64,000 nt of DNA from an uncultured Chloroflexia bacterium. GTDB lineage: Bacteria > Chloroflexota > Limnocylindria > QHBO01. Shown piece after piece: positions 13,434 through 22,743 of the stretch (positions are counted from its first letter, which is position 1; each line of letters opens with the position of its first letter). The notes beneath the pieces were generated by a model, which worked only from the letters and a program-made list of their open reading frames with translations, ran no database searches and had not been told where the DNA came from. Location of the stretch: the NCBI GenBank assembly GCA_963825525.1, contig CAWGTN010000002.1:352001-416000 (forward strand). Reading direction: 5' to 3'. The translations under genes and the position numbers were made by a program.

Positions 13434-14024
13434 TCAGCATCCAGCCCAGATTCCAGCACCGGCGGCCCGAGCGGCGCGTTCGGCGGCATCCAGCCGCGCC
13501 TGGTGCCGCGTGTCCGGCGGGAACGTGCGAGCTTCGATGAGTCCGCGCGCCACCAGGGCCTCGCCGACGTGCACCCATTCGCCGTCCTCCACGATCCAAG
13601 GATGCCGCAGGAGCCTCCCGAACCGATCACGGTCGGTCGCGTCGGCTTCCAATGTCAGCTCCACTCCCATGACCAGGTCGATGTTGGCCCGTGTGGCCGC
13701 GTCCGCGCCGCATTCGGCCGGGCTTCCGGCATCCGGGTGGGCTACCTCCGGGGCGTCGACCCCGACGTACCGGACGCGCTCGCGAAGGGCGCCGAGCTCG
13801 ACGGTGACCGTGTCGCCATCGGCCACGCGGACAACCACTCCCCGCTCCAGGGCACCTGCAGGACCGTCGTTGGATGCATTTGGGGCGATTGACGGGCTCG
13901 GCGGCGCACCCAACACCGCCACCAGTGCGACCAGGCCGGCACCCATGGCCAGGACCGCAACGATTCCGAGGAGTCGCTCGGGTCGGAGCCGCTCTCCCGC
14001 CGTGCTAGCGCTCGGATCCGGCAA
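13434..14024 (-). CDS. Thermonuclease (SNase) family protein
   Basis: VADGDT, VRYVGVDAPE, DRFGRLL, GIW. Confidence 0.92.
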   Translation of the reverse strand: MPDPSASTAGERLRPERLLGIVAVLAMGAGLVALVAVLGAPPSPSIAPNASNDGPAGALERGVVVRVADGDTVTVELGALRERVRYVGVDAPEVAHPDAGSPAECGADAATRANIDLVMGVELTLEADATDRDRFGRLLRHPWIVEDGEWVHVGEALVARGLIEARTFPPDTRHQARLDAAERAARAAGAGIWAGC

Positions 14025-14634
14025 GGGACTCAGTCAGGGTGGCGCCGGTGGGATCGAACAGCAGGCAGATGAAGGACCGATCGCCGTTGCTCCACGAACC
14101 CTCGGAGGGACTGATCATCGAGCCATGGATCTCAGACGCTTCGAACGACGTTCCGACGTACATCTCGAATTCAGGCGCGCAGCTTCGATTGAAGATGTTG
14201 GGCAGGCTGGAGTCAGGCGGGTACGACCCGTCGCCCTCGTACGTCGCCACGGCAAACACCTCGTATGCGTGCGGCTCGGTGCAGGGCACGGCGTCAACTT
14301 CGCTGATCTCGTCGGCGTCCGCGCCGTTGAAGCAATCGCCCGCCCGCAGCTCGTCAATCGACAGGGTGCCGGCCGAGGCCAGCGCGCCGTCGTCGCCGCG
14401 GCGTGCGGACGTCGCCCACCCGACGGCGAGCGCGATCGCGATGGCCGGGACCCACCAGAAGCGGATCCAGCGTCGCCATGGCGCATCCGGCGCGAGCTTG
14501 GGCGCCGTCGCCTCCCATCGCGCCTGATCGTCAGCTGAGGATTCGGCCCCACGCAGCAGCCCGCATCGGCCGCACGCGGCGTCGGACTCCTCGTTGTCGG
14601 CAAAACATCTCTTGCAGACCCATCGATCACTCAT
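14005..14634 (-). CDS. Septum-formation-family protein with N-terminal RanBP2-type zinc finger
   Basis: WVCKRCFADN...CGRC; TM; GDCFN, VPCTEPHAYEV, PSEGSWSNGDRSFIC. Confidence 0.8.
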   Translation of the reverse strand: MSDRWVCKRCFADNEESDAACGRCGLLRGAESSADDQARWEATAPKLAPDAPWRRWIRFWWVPAIAIALAVGWATSARRGDDGALASAGTLSIDELRAGDCFNGADADEISEVDAVPCTEPHAYEVFAVATYEGDGSYPPDSSLPNIFNRSCAPEFEMYVGTSFEASEIHGSMISPSEGSWSNGDRSFICLLFDPTGATLTESLAGSER

Positions 14635-15236
14635 TCGGGAACCCTAGTCGATTCGGCGGCCCGGGCGTCCGCCCATCCCCGGACGAAGGCCTCCTGGTCG
14701 GCCGTCTCGACGGCCTCGGGGTGGCGTACCTGGCGAACGCGGGCGATGGCGTCGTCCGGATCCCAGCCCGCGGCAACCAGGGCGCAGGCAACGATGGTTC
14801 CCGTCCGCCCTACGCCGCCCATGCACGCCACCGCCACGTTCGCGGATTCGCGCGCCTCGGCGATGCTGTGCAGGATGGCGTCCATCTCCTCCAGTGACGC
14901 GGGCGGATCGCCATCGGGCATCGGATGTCGATCCACGATGATCCCGATGGCGGCTGCGTGCGCCGCCACGTCAGGGTGGCCCCAGCGTCCGAGTTCCACA
15001 TCCTCGACCAGCAGAAGGAGGCGGCCGACCCCGGCGTCCGCCAGGCCCTGAAGGTCCGTGGCCAGGTCATTGCGGTAGACGCGGCCGGGATACCTGGTCG
15101 ATGCGCCGTGCTTGCCCGGTAGCACGGTCATGCCCAGGCGACCCGGGCGATGATCGTTGAGATCCGCCTCCGGCAACCAATCGATGGCCGGAGCCGGATC
15201 GTGCGCCGGTCCCGGAGCGCTAATTGAGCTGGCCAT
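14631..15236 (-). CDS. Dual-specificity/tyrosine protein phosphatase (CDKN3-like)
   Basis: CX5R loop CMGGVGRTG; AVET..Q. Confidence 0.88.
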   Translation of the reverse strand: MASSISAPGPAHDPAPAIDWLPEADLNDHRPGRLGMTVLPGKHGASTRYPGRVYRNDLATDLQGLADAGVGRLLLLVEDVELGRWGHPDVAAHAAAIGIIVDRHPMPDGDPPASLEEMDAILHSIAEARESANVAVACMGGVGRTGTIVACALVAAGWDPDDAIARVRQVRHPEAVETADQEAFVRGWADARAAESTRVPE

Positions 15237-15747
15237 TGTTGCGGACGCAGAAGTGCCCGGTGGGGTCCAGTGGCTCGCCACAGAACGGGCACGCCGGTCT
15301 ACCCGACGCAACCAATGCCTCCGCCCGGCGGGCAAAGGCGCGCGCGGTCGGCGCATCGATCCGAATTCGAAGCAGGTCGGGGCCATCCTCGGCCTCGTCC
15401 GGCAGCTCGGCGTACTCCCCGTCCTCGGTCGGGGTCTGCGCCTCGATCACCACCGCGGACGTCGTCGCGTCCCAGGCCAGCGCCATGGCACCGACGCGGA
15501 AGAGCTCGACCACCGGCTCCTCGAGCGGCAGCTCGTCACTCGGAGCCGCCTCGGCTGGCACATCGACCGCGTCGAGCAGGTCCCCGAGCCGCTTGGCAAG
15601 TGCCGCGACCTGGACCTTCTCGACCGCGACACTGATCATCGCGTCTCCCTTGCGTGCCTGGAGGAAGAATGCCCGGTCGCCGGGTTCGCCGATCGTGCCG
15701 GCAAGAAAGCGGTCGGGCTCGTCGAAGACGAAGAGGCGTCGTGTCAT
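15220..15747 (-). CDS. DUF3090 family protein
   Basis: GTIGEPGDRAFFLQA, EKVQV, FRVG, GRPACPFCGEPLDPTGHFC. Confidence 0.88.
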   Translation of the reverse strand: MTRRLFVFDEPDRFLAGTIGEPGDRAFFLQARKGDAMISVAVEKVQVAALAKRLGDLLDAVDVPAEAAPSDELPLEEPVVELFRVGAMALAWDATTSAVVIEAQTPTEDGEYAELPDEAEDGPDLLRIRIDAPTARAFARRAEALVASGRPACPFCGEPLDPTGHFCVRNNGQLN

Positions 15748-15864
15748 CCGTTCCATCGTAGCGTCTGGCGACCCGGTAGAGTTTCGGTGCAGATGAGCAC
15801 CACGGTCGCCGAGGGAGCCACCTGACCGATGCGACAGCGGCTTCGACCCTTTCGGTCTCGCGCC

Positions 15865-16419
15865 ATGGCCCGTCGACCGGGCTCCGAGGGCGCTCTCGAG
15901 CTGTCGCCCCGGGCGCGACGCATCGGCGGCTGGGTCGCGGCGGCGCTCCTGATCGGAGCCTTCGCACTCGCGTTCCGTCTCCTGGGTGGCAACGGGGATG
16001 GGACCGTGACCACCGCTTCGCCCTCCGGCACGATCGCCGGGCTGGCGCCCATTCGATTCGGCACAGCGCTCGACCCCGCATCGGGAGAGGTCGCGGCGGA
16101 CGCAGAGACCGACCGATTCACATCGGGCGACGCGTTCGCCTATTCGGTCGAGCCAACCGCAACGGTGCCGGCGGCCGTCTACGTGGAGGTTCGAAGGACA
16201 TCCGGGGGTTCGATCGAAATCACGCAGTCACCGACCGACCCGCAACCTTTGCGCAACGCCCGTGTCATCGCGTTCACCGTTCCCGCCGGGGACCTCCTCG
16301 ACGCCTTTGGTCCGGGGACCTACACGATGCTCATCTACGCCGAGGCGGATGGCGACCCGCTCGCCGAAGGACGTTTCGAGCTCATCGAGGTGCCCTCCAG
16401 TCCGGCGACAAGCCCCTGA
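15865..16419 (+). CDS. Hypothetical single-TM exported protein
   Basis: One TM followed by a beta-rich domain ending PGTYTM...LAEGRF; start could be 15829. Confidence 0.7.
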   Translation: MARRPGSEGALELSPRARRIGGWVAAALLIGAFALAFRLLGGNGDGTVTTASPSGTIAGLAPIRFGTALDPASGEVAADAETDRFTSGDAFAYSVEPTATVPAAVYVEVRRTSGGSIEITQSPTDPQPLRNARVIAFTVPAGDLLDAFGPGTYTMLIYAEADGDPLAEGRFELIEVPSSPATSP

Positions 16420-16460
16420 ACAAGAGGAAGGGATCGGAGACGTGCCCCATCTCCGATCCC
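16420..16460 (-). terminator. Intrinsic terminator
   Basis: Perfect 11-bp stem GGGATCGGAGA/TCTCCGATCCC (16430-16460) followed on the minus strand by TTCCTCTTGTT. Confidence 0.7.
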
Positions 16461-16495
16461 TGCTGGCAAGCCGGCGTGCCCATCCGACTCGTCTC
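16420..16495 (-). ncRNA. Candidate small RNA with two hairpins
   Basis: Upstream TTGACA-18-TACTGT promoter; hairpin loops AUGGGCACG and UGGGGCACG; ends in a terminator. Confidence 0.45.
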
Positions 16496-16500
16496 TCGGC

Positions 16501-16530
16501 ACAGTACGGTCACTCAACCGCACCTGTCAA
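16501..16530 (-). promoter_or_regulatory. Sigma70-type promoter
   Basis: TTGACA (16530-16525), 18 nt spacer, TACTGT (16506-16501). Confidence 0.6.
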
Positions 16531-16533
16531 TAC

Positions 16534-17832
16534 TCAATTGACCGTGAGTGCCTCACTGGTGAGCTCGTACGCGCCACGATGGTCTCCGGCCTGTGCGCGC
16601 AGGTCGGCCCAGTCCCGCAGAACCTCCCGCAACCGGCCCGGAACCCTGCTCGAACGAGCGAGCGTCGCCGCATCACCAAACCGTGCTTCGGCCTCTTCGG
16701 CCCTGCCGCTCGCGCGCAGTGCCCGCGCCTGTGTGAGGGTGGCGCCCAGCTCCGCGAGCTGATTGCCGCTGCGTGTGGCGTAGTCGACGGCCGCGGCGGC
16801 CAGGGTCATGGCCTCATCGGCTTCGCCCGCGGCCAACGCGACCTGCGCCTCGGTGTCGGCGACGGCCGCCAGCCAGCGCTCGTCGCCGGTCGCTTCGATC
16901 TGCGCCCGCGCATCCCCGGCGAGCTCGCGAGCTCGCTGCACCTGCCCGGTCGCCAGGAACGCAAGCGCGAGGTCATTCTCGATGCGAGCCGACTCGAAGA
17001 TCGCGCCCGCGGCGCGATACAGGGCCATGCCCTGCGTTCCCGCCCGGATTGCCGCTTCGAAGTCCCCGACCTCGCGATAGCCCACGGCCAGGTTGAACAG
17101 GAAAGCCGCGCGACGCCGATCATCGAGGTCCGCGGCCAGACCGCGCGCCTCTTCCAGGTACGACAGCGCACGCGTCGAATTTCCGGTTCGAGACTCGACA
17201 GCGGCAAGCGAAGTCAGAAGCCGCATCTCGAAATCGGGCTCCACGCGCAGGCCGGATCGGACCTGCTCGAGGAGCGCGGACAGGATGCTGCGCGCATCAG
17301 GTTCGTTGTCGGACTCGTACAGTCCGTATGCGAGCCAGTAGCGCGCGAGTGCCGCATCGGCATCGCGGCCCGCCAGTCCGTAGATCCGTGCGGCTTCCGA
17401 GGCCGCCGCCACCGTCTCGTTCCCGCGGTCGAGGCGCGCAAGCGCTTCGGCCAGCCCCCGCAGCAGGTCTGCGCGCGTGGAATCGTCGGACGGAAGGTCG
17501 AGCAGCTCGGTGTAACCGTCGGCGGCCGCTTGCCAGCTGCCGGCAGCCAGCTGCATATCGACCTCGAGACGGGTCCACGTCGGATGCGACTCATCGATGA
17601 AATGGCCCGGCGGCAGGTTCAGCCGCTCGGAGATGTAGTTGAGCGCGACCATGGAGGGTCGAGCGATACCGGTTTCGAGGGCGCTGACATACGCCTTGGT
17701 GTAGCGCTCCCCGGCAAGCTGCTGCTGCGTGAGCCCGGTCCGATGGCGAGCTTCGCGGATGCGTTGCCCGATGCGGTGCGCGAGCTCACGGTCCTGGTCG
17801 GTGGCTCGGGCACTCGTCTTGGTCCGTGGCAT
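16534..17832 (-). CDS. XRE HTH + TPR transcriptional regulator (RRNPP-like)
   Basis: IGQRIREAR..GLTQQQLA..YTKAYVSALETG..RPS HTH; Ala-rich helical repeats including FLFNLAVGY and IENDLALAF. Confidence 0.9.
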   Translation of the reverse strand: MPRTKTSARATDQDRELAHRIGQRIREARHRTGLTQQQLAGERYTKAYVSALETGIARPSMVALNYISERLNLPPGHFIDESHPTWTRLEVDMQLAAGSWQAAADGYTELLDLPSDDSTRADLLRGLAEALARLDRGNETVAAASEAARIYGLAGRDADAALARYWLAYGLYESDNEPDARSILSALLEQVRSGLRVEPDFEMRLLTSLAAVESRTGNSTRALSYLEEARGLAADLDDRRRAAFLFNLAVGYREVGDFEAAIRAGTQGMALYRAAGAIFESARIENDLALAFLATGQVQRARELAGDARAQIEATGDERWLAAVADTEAQVALAAGEADEAMTLAAAAVDYATRSGNQLAELGATLTQARALRASGRAEEAEARFGDAATLARSSRVPGRLREVLRDWADLRAQAGDHRGAYELTSEALTVN

Positions 17833-18008
17833 TGCGCGAGTCTACACCCGCTGGCAAGCGCTACTTGACCGTGGCATGCCCCGATCGTACTGGCGGGGAC
17901 GGGTGGGGCGGGACCGTTGGGTCATTGCCCGGTGGTTCCTTCGGCGCGACCGTGGCTGAGCGCCTTCGACGACGAAGGTCGGCCCGACCCACGTCAAGGA
18001 GAACATCG

Positions 18009-18134
18009 ATGCGAACCCGGCGAATCGCCCGCTCCATCCTGGTCGCTGGCACTGCGGCGGCGCTGAGCATTCTCAGCATCGTCTCGACTGTCATGGCCGT
18101 CACCGGCGGTGCGGACTTCCCCCTCCGCCGCTGA
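18009..18134 (+). CDS. 41-aa secreted propeptide (putative signalling peptide)
   Basis: SD AAGGAG; MRTRRIARSILVAGTAAALSILSIVSTVMA-VTGGADFPLRR. Confidence 0.8.
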   Translation: MRTRRIARSILVAGTAAALSILSIVSTVMAVTGGADFPLRR

Positions 18135-18182
18135 TCCTCGATCCATTCCGGGCCGCGGCGCGGCCCGGAGAGCGCTGAGCCC

Positions 18183-18767
18183 CTAGTGCCCGTGCTGGTA
18201 GTAGGGGTTTTCGCCTGCGTCGTGATCGGTCACGTCGACGATGGCCGTCACTGACGGGACGGCCGCCCGTACCGCGGTCTCGACACCCTGCTTGAGCGTG
18301 ACGTTGACCGCCGAGCAGCCCTGGCATCCGCCGCCGAAGCGCATGTATGCCGTGCCATCCTTGACGTCCACAAGCGTCACCTGCCCGCCATGGGATCCGA
18401 CGCCCGGGTTGATCTGTCGATCGATGACGTCCTGAACGGCGCGCGCCACCGGATCCTGCCAGCCCTCGTTCGGATTCTCAATGCGCAGGCCGCCACCGGT
18501 GACCGCCGGGTCGAGCTCGATCGATGCGCCCGCGAGATCGGTTGCGCTCGTCGGGTCGAGCACAACGGTCAGTCCATCGGATTCGACCGACAGGTCATTA
18601 TCGGCCCGTTCACGCGGATCCTCGAGCGCGATCTCGTACTGGAAACGACGTCCCTCTTTTGCCAGGACGCGTACCCGGAGAACTGCCTCGGGGAAGTTGT
18701 TGAAGGACCGAACGCCCTCGATCTTGGATCGAGCTTCGTCGGAGATGGTCAGGAGCGGATTGATCAT
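18183..18767 (-). CDS. nfuA: Fe-S biogenesis protein, NfuA-like
   Basis: Degenerate A-type domain plus INPGVGSHGG...FGGGCQGC...DVTDH..GENPYY. Confidence 0.88.
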   Translation of the reverse strand: MINPLLTISDEARSKIEGVRSFNNFPEAVLRVRVLAKEGRRFQYEIALEDPRERADNDLSVESDGLTVVLDPTSATDLAGASIELDPAVTGGGLRIENPNEGWQDPVARAVQDVIDRQINPGVGSHGGQVTLVDVKDGTAYMRFGGGCQGCSAVNVTLKQGVETAVRAAVPSVTAIVDVTDHDAGENPYYQHGH

Positions 18768-18874
18768 CAGCGCCATGGTACTGCGGGACGTCTGCCGCTG
18801 CACCGGCCCCCATGGTGAAGCGGCCGTAGCCTCCACGTGAAGAAGCCTTTGCAGCGCAGGGTGAGGCGTGCATT

Positions 18875-18889
18875 CGGCACGCGGTGTGC
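18875..18889 (+). promoter_or_regulatory. Putative sigma54 -24/-12 promoter
   Basis: CGGCACGCGGTGTGC (GG-N10-GC) upstream of the lipoprotein gene. Confidence 0.45.
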
Positions 18890-18946
18890 GCGCTCGAGAC
18901 GGAGAGCGCCCGCTGCGCTCTCAACCAACCGATGCACAGGGGAACC

Positions 18947-19459
18947 ATGAACAAGTTGAATCCATTGCACCGCGTCGCCGCTCTCGCAGCCGCCGCAGCC
19001 TTCGCGCTGGCCGCCTGCGCCCCGGCCGGCGGTGGCAGCTCCGGCGAGCCGGCCACATCGCCCGGGTCGGAAAGCGCACGTCCTGCGCCATCAGCCAGCG
19101 AGGAGGTTGCCAGCCGCGTCTCGATCGACGACGTGCTCGCCGATCCCGCGTCCTTCCAGGATGCGGATGTGACGATCATGGAGAACGTCGACGAGGTCTA
19201 TGTCGTCGACCGCGCATTCCGCTTCAGCGGCACCGAAGTCCAGGGCGACCTGCTCGTGGTCGTCGCTCCGGACGCAGCCATCGACAAGGAGATCCAGCCA
19301 GACCGGGTCGTGACGGTGACCGGCCGCATCGTGCCGTTCACCGACGAGGCGATGCAGGCGGCGGGCATCGACCTGACCACGGATGACGACGCGGTCGCGG
19401 GCTACGCGGGGAATGCGGTCCTGGTGGCGGCACGCGTCGCCGATCCGCTGTCCCAGTAG
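18947..19459 (+). CDS. Hypothetical lipoprotein (OB-fold-like)
   Basis: Lipobox LAAC; SD GGGGA; V.IDDVLADP..F....VT pattern. Confidence 0.75.
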   Translation: MNKLNPLHRVAALAAAAAFALAACAPAGGGSSGEPATSPGSESARPAPSASEEVASRVSIDDVLADPASFQDADVTIMENVDEVYVVDRAFRFSGTEVQGDLLVVVAPDAAIDKEIQPDRVVTVTGRIVPFTDEAMQAAGIDLTTDDDAVAGYAGNAVLVAARVADPLSQ

Positions 19460-19463
19460 GGGG

Positions 19464-22070
19464 TCAGCCGAGCGGCGGCAGGTCCTGCGCGTCCGTGAGG
19501 ACGGCGGCGAAGCGGTCCCCGTCCTGCGCGACCCGGGCCGGCGCATCATGGATGGTCCACCGGTCCGGGCGCAGGTCCGGGTCGTCGAGCTCGTCCCAGG
19601 AGATCGGCATGCTCACCGGGGCGCCGGGCGCCGGTCGCGGGCTGTACGGCGCGACGAGTGTCTTGTTGATGGCGTTCTGCGTGAAGTCAAGGCGCGCCTT
19701 GCCCTTCCTCGCACGTTTCGCCCATTCCCAGCTCACGAGATCGGGGACGGTGGCGCCCACCGCTCGTGACAGGCCCTCGACCCAATCGCGCGTGTCGTCG
19801 AACCCGGGGCCCGGGTTGATGCGGATCCAGACCTGGATCCCCCGCTTCCCGGTGACCTTCGGGTAGCCGCGCACGCCGAGGTGATCGAGGGCGGTTCGAT
19901 ACAGTCGCCCGAGCTCGACGACCTCGTCCCACGTGGTGTCCGGCCCCGGATCGATGTCGATCAGCGCGTAGGACGGTCGATCCGGGGTGGCCATCGGCGA
20001 CGTCCAGGGGTGCATCTCGATGGCGCCCTCCTGCGCGAGCCACAGCAGCGTCGCAGGCTCATCCACGACCGGATAGTCCTTCGGACCTTCCTCCCGATGG
20101 TGGTACGTCCATCGATTCACCCACTCGGGCGCATGACCCGGCAGGTCCTTCTGCCAGAACCCCTTCTGCTCGACCCCGTTCGGAAAGCGCTGGACGGTCA
20201 GCCCACGATCGGCCAGGTACGGCACCAGGATCGGGCCGATGGCGAGGTGGTACCGAAGCAGGTCTCGCTTCGTGATCGGGTCACCGCCGTCTCGCCCGGG
20301 AAAGAGCGTCTTGTCGAGATTCGTGACGCGCAGCTCGCGGCCCGCGGCCGCCCAGACGCCTTCCCGTTCGATAGCGGCCAGTCCGTCTTGAGCTCCCTGC
20401 GGGGCCGACACCACAACCTCATCCTTGACCGCCGACTCGGCGGCCGCCACCGCGCGCCTGCTGGACACCGAACGCTCGCGGCGAACCGCAGTCGGTGCCT
20501 TCCCAACCTCGATGCCCTTGAACGCGGCCTGTCGGAGCAGGTCATCCGCCGTCCAATCCGCGAACTCCACCCGGATGACGAGCCGTGGCTCGACCCAGTG
20601 CGCGCCCTTCAAGCGCGGCACGACCTCCAGCGCCGATGCGTCCCGGGCGAGCTCGTCGAGCTTCGTGCGCAGCTCGCGGCGGGTCCGGGCATCGATGCCG
20701 CTGCCCACCTGGCCGGCATGCACCCAGTGGTCGCCGCTTCGCACGGCGACGATCAGGGACCCGAGATCACGGTGGCTGCCCTGGCCCTGGAGCCATCCCA
20801 CCACCACGACCTCCTGCTCCCGTCGAAGCTTGACCTTCAGCCAGCTGCGCGCCCGACGGCCGGGCTCGTAGCGCGACAGGCGGAGCTTGGCGACGATGCC
20901 CTCGAGCTCCTGGCTGCGTGCCGCCTCGGTGAATGCGTTTCCCTCACCATCGACGTGGCTGGCGTACCGCACCAGCGGATGCGGCCGCAGGCGTGAGCGG
21001 AGGAGTCGCTTTCGCTCGATGAGCGGCACATCGAGCAGGGAGCGCCCGTCGATGTGGAGCAGGTCGAACACCTGGTACACGACCGGCGCCGGCGCTCCCG
21101 GGCGCTTCGACCCCGGTGCGCGTCCGGTGCGGATGCCCGTCCGATCCTGGAGCAGGCTGAAGCTGGGCCGCCCGTTGTCGTCCAGCGCGACCACCTCCCC
21201 ATCGACGATCGCATCGGTGGCATCGATCCAGGCGGCGTCGCCCGCCAGGTCCGGGAAGTACCTGGCCGCGTCCTGCTGATTCCGGGTCCAGAGCCGGGCG
21301 ACGCCGTCCCGGATCACCGCCTCGACTCGGTAGCCATCCCACTTGATCTCGAACAGCCAATCCGGGTCGTCGAACGGGGCGTCGGCCAGGGTGGCGCGCA
21401 TCGGCGAGATGAAGCTCGGCATCGGCTCCGCGCGGGCGGCAGAGAGGTCGATCTCGCCCACCGGGCCGGGCATCGACCCCTCGAACCTGGGCTTCCCGCC
21501 GTCGCGGACCTCGTCATTGGTGCGCCCCGTCTTCACGCTGGCCGGATGATCCTCGGCATCCCAGCCGTCGACGGCGGTCCCGTCCCGCTTGTGAATCAGC
21601 AGCCACTGCTCGCGCTCGTCGCCCCCACCGCGCCGGCGGTTGTCGGTCCGGACGATCGTGAATCGGCCACGAACCTTCTCGCCATGCAGCTCGAACTTGA
21701 TCTCTCCCGCCCGCAGTCCGGCAGCCGGATCGGGAGTCTCGGCTTCCGGTTGGTAGGTGCCCCAATCCCATACGATCACGTCCCCGCCGCCATACTCGTC
21801 CTTCGGGATCACGCCCTCGAAGTCGAAGTACTCGATCGGATGATCCTCGGTGCGCATCGCCAGCCGGCGGGCCGCTGGATCGAGTGTGGGACCCTTCGGC
21901 ACCGCCCAGCTGACCAGCACGCCGCCGATCTCCAGTCGCACGTCGTAGTGCAGTGCGGTGGCGCGGTGACGCTGAATCGTGAACCGGCCGCTCCGATCGA
22001 CGAGCTCGCCCGGCGCGGGCTCGGGCGTGGCGGCGAAGTCACGCTTGCGTCGGTACTCCTCGAGCGGCAT
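19464..22070 (-). CDS. ligD: DNA ligase D (phosphoesterase-ligase-polymerase)
   Basis: LEEYRRKRDFAATPEP, HYDVRLE, EIKWDGYR, EGIVAK, DIDP, APYSPR. Confidence 0.96.
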   Translation of the reverse strand: MPLEEYRRKRDFAATPEPAPGELVDRSGRFTIQRHRATALHYDVRLEIGGVLVSWAVPKGPTLDPAARRLAMRTEDHPIEYFDFEGVIPKDEYGGGDVIVWDWGTYQPEAETPDPAAGLRAGEIKFELHGEKVRGRFTIVRTDNRRRGGGDEREQWLLIHKRDGTAVDGWDAEDHPASVKTGRTNDEVRDGGKPRFEGSMPGPVGEIDLSAARAEPMPSFISPMRATLADAPFDDPDWLFEIKWDGYRVEAVIRDGVARLWTRNQQDAARYFPDLAGDAAWIDATDAIVDGEVVALDDNGRPSFSLLQDRTGIRTGRAPGSKRPGAPAPVVYQVFDLLHIDGRSLLDVPLIERKRLLRSRLRPHPLVRYASHVDGEGNAFTEAARSQELEGIVAKLRLSRYEPGRRARSWLKVKLRREQEVVVVGWLQGQGSHRDLGSLIVAVRSGDHWVHAGQVGSGIDARTRRELRTKLDELARDASALEVVPRLKGAHWVEPRLVIRVEFADWTADDLLRQAAFKGIEVGKAPTAVRRERSVSSRRAVAAAESAVKDEVVVSAPQGAQDGLAAIEREGVWAAAGRELRVTNLDKTLFPGRDGGDPITKRDLLRYHLAIGPILVPYLADRGLTVQRFPNGVEQKGFWQKDLPGHAPEWVNRWTYHHREEGPKDYPVVDEPATLLWLAQEGAIEMHPWTSPMATPDRPSYALIDIDPGPDTTWDEVVELGRLYRTALDHLGVRGYPKVTGKRGIQVWIRINPGPGFDDTRDWVEGLSRAVGATVPDLVSWEWAKRARKGKARLDFTQNAINKTLVAPYSPRPAPGAPVSMPISWDELDDPDLRPDRWTIHDAPARVAQDGDRFAAVLTDAQDLPPLG

Positions 22071-22080
22071 GGCGCTTGGG

Positions 22081-22743
22081 TCAGGCCGGGAGATCGAGGC
22101 CGTCGAGCGTCTCGAGCACCTCGGCCGCCCCCGCATCGCGGAGCGCATCGGCGTCGACAGCGGCCCCCGCCAGGACGCCGACCGCGCGCATCCCGGCGGC
22201 CACTGCGGCTCGCATGTCCCAGGTCGAGTCCCCGATGTACCAGCAGCGTTCGGGCGCGACGCCGACCTCGCGTGCGGCGAGCAGCAGGAGATCGGGTGCC
22301 GGCTTGGCATGCTCCACGTGGCTGCCATCGATGACCCGAGGCTCCTGGTCCAGGCCCAGGGCGGCGATCGAGGTGCCGACCTGCTCCCTGCGCGAGGACG
22401 TGGCGATCGCCCAGGTCCAGCCGGCGTCATTCAGGGCGCGGAGCTGCTCACGAGCCCCCGGAAGAGGCCGAGGGGCGCGATTGCGCTCGTCGAAGAGCTC
22501 GCCGCTGCGCCGATCCACGGCCTCTGCCGTCCGGTCATCCATCTCGCGGCCGGCAGCCCTCGCGCCTTCGCGGGCGAGCCGTCTGCCATCGATGCCGATC
22601 ATCGGCTCGACCATCGACCGGGCGACCGGGATGTTGAACTCCTCGAACACGGCAACCCAGGCTTCGATGCGTGCCGGAACGGTGTCGACCAGCGTGCCGT
22701 CGAGGTCGAACAGGACGGCATCGGGGCGAGAAGGGTTCGGCAT
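22081..22743 (-). CDS. HAD family phosphatase
   Basis: FDLDGTLVD, ATSS, KPAPD, IGDSTWD. Confidence 0.92.
   Translation of the reverse strand: MPNPSRPDAVLFDLDGTLVDTVPARIEAWVAVFEEFNIPVARSMVEPMIGIDGRRLAREGARAAGREMDDRTAEAVDRRSGELFDERNRAPRPLPGAREQLRALNDAGWTWAIATSSRREQVGTSIAALGLDQEPRVIDGSHVEHAKPAPDLLLLAAREVGVAPERCWYIGDSTWDMRAAVAAGMRAVGVLAGAAVDADALRDAGAAEVLETLDGLDLPA

Follow-up and report, generated by a model that had tools for sequence, protein, structure and literature searches.

RRNPP-kind peptide signalling is described for Firmicutes in PMC10075063. In the arbitrium system of Bacillus phages, as set out in PMC6458997 and PMC8464984, the output aimX is controlled by a transcription-factor receptor, AimR, and binding of the peptide to AimR lowers aimX expression. 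Here we describe a predicted small RNA (sRNA) encoded directly behind the gene of a receptor-like protein, an XRE-type helix-turn-helix (HTH) followed by tetratricopeptide repeats (TPR), on a 64,000-nt stretch of DNA (the window, by which we mean that whole stretch). The window comes from the chromosome of an uncultured bacterium of the Limnocylindria (Chloroflexota), and the top relatives of the HTH-TPR protein, hereafter the receptor, are all encoded in metagenome-assembled genomes of that group. As in the case of aimX, the putative output locus has as neighbours the genes of an HTH-TPR receptor and of a small peptide.

RNAIII of the staphylococcal agr system and the Qrr sRNAs of Vibrio are regulatory RNAs driven directly by a cell-signalling regulator and encoded beside the signalling genes; the regulators in these systems are two-component or sigma-54 regulators. 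In RNAIII, a much larger RNA, a short C-rich motif is repeated in several hairpin loops and pairs with ribosome-binding sites. CsrB and RsmZ carry a GGA motif many times over, in loops that bind CsrA or RsmA. DapZ and MicL of enterobacteria are Hfq-dependent sRNAs with known seeds, embedded in the 3' ends of genes and transcribed from their own promoters. The operator of AimR consists of two repeats that lie far apart.

By comparison of sequences across the family, the element behind the receptor gene is discrete, conserved, structured and non-coding; this is far beyond chance, and the element is more than a plain terminator. We consider it probable that it is an independently transcribed sRNA gene which, with the genes of the small peptide and of the XRE-HTH/TPR regulator, forms the third part of a conserved chromosomal unit. 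We infer that this transcription of its own would come in addition to the service of the element as 3' untranslated region (3'UTR) of the receptor mRNA.

Results

Conservation and structure of the element

Relatives of the receptor were collected in a protein-guided scan of one genome per species. The scan returned 109, and the best 80 loci were kept (64-85% amino-acid identity). The receptor 3' end is reached in 79 of the 80, and in all 79 of these the element lies directly behind the receptor stop. Promoter and loop counts refer to 79 sequences, namely the window and 78 loci, with one locus that is cut by a contig end (L073) left out. Among them the GGGCAC hexamer in the loop of the second hairpin (P2) is invariant (79/79) and that in the loop of the first hairpin (P1) nearly so. 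A TAnnnT hexamer stands 17-18 nt downstream of the -35 in 78 of the 79 sequences, the other (L022) having a deletion, and its commonest forms are TAGGCT (32) and TACGCT (17). Across the 46 loci with the short form of the element, nucleotide identity to the window is 0.91 in the sRNA vs 0.77 in the receptor coding sequence. The non-coding stretch thus evolves more slowly than the gene that it adjoins, and is therefore under selection of its own.

In the window, the gap of 114 nt between the receptor gene and the next, convergent gene contains the promoter, an 8-bp hairpin (P1) and an 11-bp terminator hairpin (P2; Table 1). The predicted sRNA would start at 16496-16494, about 7 nt past the -10, and its 3' end would fall within the U-rich tail at 16429-16420. 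P1 and P2 are joined by a linker of about 6 nt, GGGCAC is present in both loops, and the tail that follows P2 is UUCCUCUUGU. A terminator scan calls P2 on the minus strand (tail TCCTCTTGTT); as in intrinsic terminators, it is a G+C-rich hairpin followed by a run of U. P2 is thus the predicted terminator common to the receptor mRNA and the sRNA, so the receptor mRNA must also end there. The role of intrinsic terminator leaves the invariant loop and stem of P2 unexplained.

A preliminary description, made from the letters of the window, had placed a promoter of the form TTGACA-18-TACTGT on the minus strand 3 nt past the receptor stop, and the coordinates and the conservation of this promoter (78/79) bear it out. 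It had also described an 11-bp terminator hairpin, two nearly identical loops and a convergent next gene, all of which we find. The hairpin that it gave as GTCGG/CCGGC is present as well, but these letters are only the core of an 8-pair stem, and P1 is longer than was described.

The element occurs in two forms. The short form, to which the window belongs, is about 75 nt long. In the long form (about 105-130 nt) an extra hairpin is inserted within P1, and the first GGGCAC then lies in an internal loop. One long-form subgroup has an outer helix around P2 and no U-tail, and the RNA must therefore end further on. At least four T are found in the 10 nt after P2 in 58 of the 79 loci, and at most two in the other 21.

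The pairing of both hairpins is well supported by comparison. In the short form, 98.9% of 835 cells of the alignment are paired, vs 34-50% when the partner is slid by 1-3 columns, and both sides have changed in 6 of 19 pairs, which was reached by none of 500 shuffles. In the long form 92.8% of cells are paired, both sides have changed in 6 of 9 P1 pairs, and 9 of the 10 P2 pairs are invariant across 29 sequences. Columns 6/32 form a G-U pair in 41 of the 44 distinct short-form sequences, and changes from U-A to U-G are found in 14 (P1) and in 6 of these 44. Because such G-U pairs would be A-C mismatches on the opposite strand, the receptor strand is the selected one. From loop to loop, short-form sequences measure 29-37 nt and long-form sequences 59-68 nt; the distance varies in steps that are not multiples of three, and therefore no reading frame is kept. 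When the sequence of the window is folded by itself, the minus strand reaches -45.7 kcal/mol (z -2.26; 7 of 200 shuffles as stable) and the plus strand -35.6 kcal/mol (z -1.31). This single-sequence folding signal is modest, and it is the comparative evidence that is decisive.

Table 1 Features of the sRNA locus and of the adjoining genes, in positions of the window
Feature	Position	Strand	Remarks
sRNA -35, TTGACA	16525-16530	minus	3 nt past the receptor stop; exact in 78/79 sequences, the exception being TTGACT
sRNA -10, TACTGT (TAnnnT type)	16501-16506	minus	18-nt spacer after the -35
Predicted sRNA, ~70-77 nt	16420-16496	minus	Ends inferred from promoter and terminator geometry
Hairpin P1, 8 pairs, CGAGUCGG/CCGGCUUG	16491-16484 with 16474-16467	minus	G-U pairs included
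P1 loop, AUGGGCACG	16483-16475	minus	
Hairpin P2, 11 pairs, GGGAUCGGAGA/UCUCCGAUCCC	16460-16450 with 16440-16430	minus	Intrinsic terminator (predicted)
P2 loop, UGGGGCACG	16449-16441	minus	
17-bp palindrome GTCAAT-N5-ATTGAC	16526-16542		Candidate operator; exact match to GTCAA-N7-TTGAC
Second site, GTCAA-N7-TTGCC	17853-17869		GTCAAG-N6-CTTGCC on the minus strand; one mismatch; 21-37 nt upstream of the receptor ATG
Receptor -10-like hexamer, TAGACT	17839-17844	minus	6 nt before the ATG
Peptide-gene promoter (divergent), TTGACC-17-TACTGG	17865-17893	plus	-35 is the other half of the 17853-17869 site
Receptor gene, 432 aa	16534-17832	minus	XRE-type HTH, then TPR repeats; Pfam HTH_31 (6.8e-8), TPR_12 (3.4e-12)
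Receptor stop, TGA	16536-16534	minus	
Small peptide gene, 41 aa	18009-18134	plus	Signal-peptide-like N-terminus; C-terminal ...VMA/VTGGADFPLRR
Convergent gene, membrane-anchored protein of 196 aa	15829-16419	plus	Ends 10 nt from P2

Distribution of the element

Covariance models were built from the regions behind receptor homologues, as the preliminary description had proposed, one for the short form (R1) and one for the long form (R2). On the sRNA stretch of the window R1 scores 97.5 bits (E-value 1.7e-18). This is its sole strong match in the genome to which the window belongs (G000; 2.58 Mb, 68.6% G+C), and R2 likewise finds one strong copy there. In a sample of the class, R2 is positive in 49 of 50 genomes of one family of the Limnocylindria (f1) and R1 in 45 of 50, and neither model is matched in the 100 genomes from four other families of the class. 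In a sample of the phylum, R2 finds the element in 10 of 10 genomes of the same family and in 0 of 140 from the rest of the phylum. The tallies of R1 and R2 include three unpublished genomes of the family (G084, G093 and G120), without which the R2 count is 46 of 47. When the 49 sampled R2-positive genomes and the window's own genome are taken together (n = 50), the match lies directly downstream of the receptor and on the same strand in 49; in the remaining one it is at a contig start, where its position relative to the receptor is not judgeable.

The exact 31-nt pattern of P2 is found in 106 stretches of a collection of 185,579 species, once per stretch. Among the 80 records listed for these 106 stretches, 74 are labelled Chloroflexota/Limnocylindria and six are bins with other labels. 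The listed stretches that have 150 nt upstream (n = 79) carry the promoter in 77 cases, the palindrome described below in 76 and the loop-1 motif in 78; this set overlaps the 80 receptor loci and is not independent of them. Viral contigs gave 0 matches to the P2 pattern.

A check against Rfam had also been suggested, and no family matched. With the whole window at gathering score, Rfam 15 returns only 2 tRNAs, elsewhere in the window. With E-values up to 10, a 351-nt region around the element returns only three miRNA models (13.7-15 bits vs cut-offs of 60-83), and five other loci, long forms included, return one miRNA model (27.7 bits vs a cut-off of 60). Homologs of the receptor from another family of the class (48-53% identity) have no such sRNA, promoter or palindrome behind the gene, and neither does a paralog of the receptor in the window's own genome (45% identity). 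By these searches, the predicted sRNA is a new sRNA family.

A palindrome at the sRNA, receptor and peptide promoters

The sRNA promoter overlaps a 17-bp palindrome whose left half covers the last receptor codons and whose right half covers the -35, with the stop codon between them; this arrangement is conserved across loci. In six loci (L053, L056, L057, L076, L077 and L080) the stop codon lies 24-35 nt further upstream, and a separate left half-site is kept beside the -35. The half-site is kept there without overlapping the coding end, and therefore the DNA motif is selected itself and is not a by-product of the receptor C-terminus.

In 78 of 78 loci a second site precedes the receptor ATG by 37-40 nt; it lies over the core of the promoter of the receptor gene, just before the -10-like hexamer. 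In the loci shown, this hexamer (TAGACT/TACACT/TATACT) is conserved at 6-7 nt from the ATG, which would leave the receptor mRNA with almost no leader or none. Read on the opposite strand, the far half of the second site provides a -35 (TTGACC/TTGACT) that is followed at 16-18 nt by TAnnnN in 68 of 76 loci, and this predicted promoter reads towards the divergent peptide gene. By the inferred starts, the palindrome is centred about 40 bp upstream of both the sRNA start and the peptide-gene start.

Across the whole genome of the window, the exact palindrome has 2 copies (0.53 expected) and a relaxed form 3. In four of five other genomes of the family, the pattern is found at both the sRNA and the receptor promoters, with few other matches. 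Because copies of the palindrome sit on the sRNA promoter and on the receptor/peptide promoters, the sRNA is probably co-regulated with the receptor/peptide cassette. The usual reader of such a palindrome is a dimer of an XRE-type HTH protein, and the sole XRE-type HTH protein encoded at the locus is the receptor. We infer that the receptor reads the 17-bp palindrome. In one genome whose receptor is more distant (57% identity), the sRNA has diverged: the P2 stem has another sequence, but its loop retains GGGCAC, and both palindromes occur.

Apart from the copy at the sRNA promoter, the genome has a single exact GTCAA-N7-TTGAC (C4:64278-64294 of G000). It lies at a contig end behind a tRNA gene and overlaps a promoter, TTGACT-17-GATACT, which points past the end of the contig. 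This copy was not found in the 12 genomes of the genus that were examined and is therefore not in a conserved regulon; it may be part of an inserted element specific to the strain.

Conservation extends to the spacer of the sRNA promoter (16507-16524, minus strand). It contains the direct repeat GGTGC-N5-GGTG(A/C), whose units are about one helical turn from each other and which may serve as another binding site or form a piece of the structure of the receptor 3'UTR. The spacer of the peptide promoter has no comparable conservation.

Receptor, peptide gene and neighbourhood

Each of the 50 sampled genomes of the family encodes an ortholog of the receptor (50/50). Seven more unpublished genomes (G067, G091, G106, G112, G291, G298 and G303) enter only the search for receptor homologs and three further tallies. 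The best sequence match of the receptor in the PDB is the HTH of PlcR (E-value 5.4e-5), and it covers the HTH only. The AlphaFold model is all-helical with TPR-like helix pairs (mean predicted local distance difference test score 87.3). A Foldseek search with this model ranks generic TPR proteins (LGN) first, RapF 34th and PlcR 39th. As far as sequence and model go, the fit with the RRNPP type is one of architecture, an N-terminal XRE-type HTH followed by a TPR-type domain.

Orthologous small open reading frames lie beside the receptor in 70 loci, in two forms that have the same aligned start position. Form 1 has 37-41 aa, with a signal-peptide-like core and the end ...TGGGDFPR(xx). Form 2, which is found in many long-form loci, has 12 aa (of the type MRSAHTGGGWPS) and a strong ribosome-binding site, and is without a hydrophobic core. 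Both end in a common G-G-G-x-[FW]-P motif. In its predicted gene content, the layout resembles an RRNPP cassette.

The 5' untranslated region (5'UTR) of the peptide gene, about 105 nt (~17900-18008, plus strand), is conserved in all loci and contains GGGACCGAUGGGUCAUUG. A stem in it, CCGAUGGG/CCCAUCGG, covaries (for example CGGAGUGG/CCACUCCG in L003). The likeness of its segment AUGGGUCA to the sRNA loops is in the same sense, without complementarity.

The stretch from 13510 to 22430 of the window is syntenic family-wide and contains LigD, a NifU-like gene, the peptide gene, the receptor, the sRNA, the 196-aa membrane-anchored protein and a DSP-type phosphatase. The long-form group lacks the NifU-like gene, and the convergent gene is syntenic in 67 of the 80 loci.

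The paralog of the receptor is encoded at C3:76139-77392 (minus strand) of G000. About 100-230 nt past its stop there is a convergent small gene for a signal-peptide-bearing peptide that ends in ...EGQPPIPR in this genome and in ...DSLPPIPK in genus relatives. Upstream lies a palindrome of the type CAAC-N5-GTTG. In four genus relatives, the paralog stop is followed at once by GGGCAC and then by a hairpin with GAGCAC in its loop.

Discussion

Proposed mode of action

In the mechanism that we propose, the receptor would bind as a dimer to GTCAA-N7-TTGAC. A site about 40 bp upstream of a start is the typical position of a class II activator, and from its site at about -40 the receptor would activate both the sRNA promoter and the peptide-gene promoter. 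The same site over the core of the receptor promoter would lead to autorepression, and one protein would switch the peptide gene and the sRNA together. With lower confidence, we suggest that the sRNA would act in trans through its two GGGCAC loops.

The near-invariant P2 and the GGGCAC loops point to a sequence-specific partner of the predicted RNA. Two identical loop motifs together with a nearly invariant P2 stem fit an RNA-binding partner best, and pairing through loop seeds next. A protein ligand is favoured because the near-invariant P2 stem is needed by neither a terminator nor a pairing seed. Our tentative preference is thus that the sRNA may offer two sites, as a ligand or decoy, to an RNA-binding factor that is sequence-specific and probably dimeric. 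More speculative, and in our estimate rather unlikely as a whole, is a three-gene signalling module in which an exported G-G-G-x-[FW]-P peptide would be sensed inside the cell by the HTH-TPR receptor, which would then switch on the peptide gene and the effector sRNA through operators of a single type, and the GGGCAC loops would capture either a set of mRNAs or an RNA-binding protein that is dimeric.

Alternative explanations

Pairing with other RNAs is possible, although we find it somewhat doubtful. The GGGCAC loops would then be seeds, possibly as kissing loops, for GUGCCC sites in mRNAs, and invariant, repeated, single-stranded loop hexamers are typical of seeds. There is also a lead, the 5'UTR of a gene for a protein of 188 aa (C1:79032-79595 of G000), which has a 13-nt complement of the sRNA at its 5' end after a TACACT -10; the core of this complement, GCCCATCCGA, has exact copies in 10 of the 12 loci compared within the genus, and its flanks are variable. 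However, about 17 matches of 13-14 nt occur across the genome, so that one 13-nt match is expected by chance. The motif is not kept outside the genus, it does not covary with the long-form loops (30 family loci), and seed pairing leaves the near-invariant P2 stem unexplained. The 5'UTR in question is at C1:79596-79650 (minus strand) of G000, and the part of the sRNA with which GCCCATCCGA would pair lies where P1 meets loop 1. A Pfam search of the 188-aa protein found no family.

Two other candidate targets were tried and rejected. A hairpin in the pyrG leader whose loop matches loop 2 is found in the window's own genome only (1 of 30 family loci), and only 15 of 79 loci have the GTGCCC that stands at +19 of the receptor mRNA. 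The sRNA and the 5'UTR of the peptide mRNA have no excess complementarity (mean z 0.08 over 61 loci, by a crude comparison with mononucleotide shuffles and unrestricted duplexes). The leader of pyrG, the CTP synthase gene (C2:866150-866260 of G000, minus strand), itself has, in many of the 30 family loci, a conserved CCCGAGU...CUCGCG helix after a -10 of the TAAGAT/TAGACT type, and the remaining loci have a different conserved leader, ...GATAGAATCGGAAAAACCCCGGAGG.

The preliminary description had named a plain terminator as the alternative to an sRNA. The element is more than that: the promoter, the loops and the position are kept across loci whose receptors are 64-85% identical to that of the window. 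A broader form of this explanation is that there is no separate sRNA and that the hairpins serve solely as a structured 3'UTR and terminator of the receptor mRNA (for termination, stability or 3'-end protection), with TTGACA and TAnnnT kept as a region bound by a regulator. The receptor gene has no other terminator, so that its mRNA must include the element; P2 is called as a terminator; and TTGACA is also half of the palindrome. We nevertheless think it unlikely. Without a promoter there would be little reason for the -35 and the -10 to keep a fixed spacing of 17-18 nt in 78 of 79 loci, and the peptide gene would be driven by the same geometry of site and promoter. The sequence of loop and stem is kept family-wide, unlike that of ordinary terminators, and P1 and the loop motifs are unnecessary for termination.

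Action in cis on the convergent gene is more improbable again. Transcripts of this gene would extend into the sRNA region, be fully complementary to the sRNA and come under antisense control or transcriptional interference, and the distance to P2 (Table 1), the synteny of this gene and the plus strand, which has no T-run after the hairpin, are in keeping with this. But the G-U pairs place selection on the fold of the receptor strand, antisense action has no need of invariant loops or stem sequence, and P2 can also form on the plus strand, where it may stop the convergent mRNA. In addition, the sRNA is kept in the 13 of 80 loci that have no such neighbour by tblastn. To modes of action other than those considered here we give a similarly small probability. 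A small protein encoded from the AUG in loop 1 is very improbable, in spite of minus-strand open frames of 43 and 62 codons that overlap the region and an AUG in both short-form loops, as the AUGs stand in hairpin loops without a spaced ribosome-binding site, the long form has no AUG in either loop, and the variable distance from loop to loop, in which the frame is lost, rules it out.

Several observations weigh against an independently transcribed sRNA that acts in trans. A simple scan of the window for the sigma-70 consensus calls no sRNA promoter, because TACTGT agrees with TATAAT at only 3 of 6 positions, and by the TATAAT standard the -10 is weak. TTGACA is possibly conserved just as an operator half-site. 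In about a quarter of the loci (21 of 79) P2 has no U-rich tail, and the RNA must end elsewhere there. As the whole neighbourhood is syntenic, adjacency to the receptor gene alone says little. Our search for targets yielded none that is conserved: among the receptor mRNA, the peptide 5'UTR, the pyrG leader and the UTR of the 188-aa gene, no target holds family-wide. Finally, hairpins with GGGCAC in the loop make up 113 of 2015 genome-wide occurrences of the hexamer (5.6%) vs a median of 4.5% for 60 permutations of the hexamer, which is the highest value by a small margin.

Significance

In the full-text literature that was searched, no paper pairs Limnocylindria with a small RNA or with quorum sensing, and RRNPP is mentioned together with Chloroflexi only in unrelated work. 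The predicted RNA family is represented by more than 100 natural sequences and has a clear promoter, a candidate operator and a candidate regulator next door. Limnocylindria are abundant in soil and freshwater but uncultured, and the sRNA unit is testable in a heterologous host without culturing the organism. A working unit of peptide, receptor and sRNA in Chloroflexota, if true, would widen the picture of RRNPP systems and would be a second, independent case of an aimX-like layout. Beyond Firmicutes and their phages, it would also be the first peptide circuit of an RRNPP-like kind whose output is an RNA, and one that is core to its lineage.

Comparison with described systems

The preliminary description had read the element as a dedicated non-coding output of the cassette, analogous to aimX. 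This reading is supported in part: what stands is a conserved non-coding element that has a palindrome in common with the cassette. The analogy is one of layout only, aimX having been set beside the element by description, and on the features compared here the locus is not a phage arbitrium system. Phages of Firmicutes carry aimX, whereas the present locus lies on the chromosome, is inherited vertically within one family of Chloroflexota and has 0 matches among viral contigs. The gene order also differs from that of AimR, AimP and aimX, since the peptide gene is divergent and upstream here and does not lie between receptor and output. The candidate operator is a 17-bp palindrome, unlike the operator of AimR.

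From RNAIII and the Qrr sRNAs the element differs in its G-rich GGGCAC loops, and it has no Rfam match to any such family. With CsrB and RsmZ it has in common the same short motif in the loops of successive hairpins of a small RNA. These loops are GGGCAC and not A(N)GGA, however, and there are only two of them, which is not the make-up of a sponge of the CsrB/RsmZ type; the sequence of the P2 stem is also nearly invariant, unlike in those RNAs. As in DapZ and MicL, the promoter overlaps the 3' end of the upstream gene, the terminator is held in common, and the sequence would be both 3'UTR and short RNA. It differs from them in that the promoter starts 3 nt after the stop and the upstream gene encodes the likely regulator of the sRNA itself. 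The element thus shares the logic of aimX, of RNAs driven by quorum sensing and of sRNAs embedded in 3' ends, yet it is a new RNA family in a new phylum.

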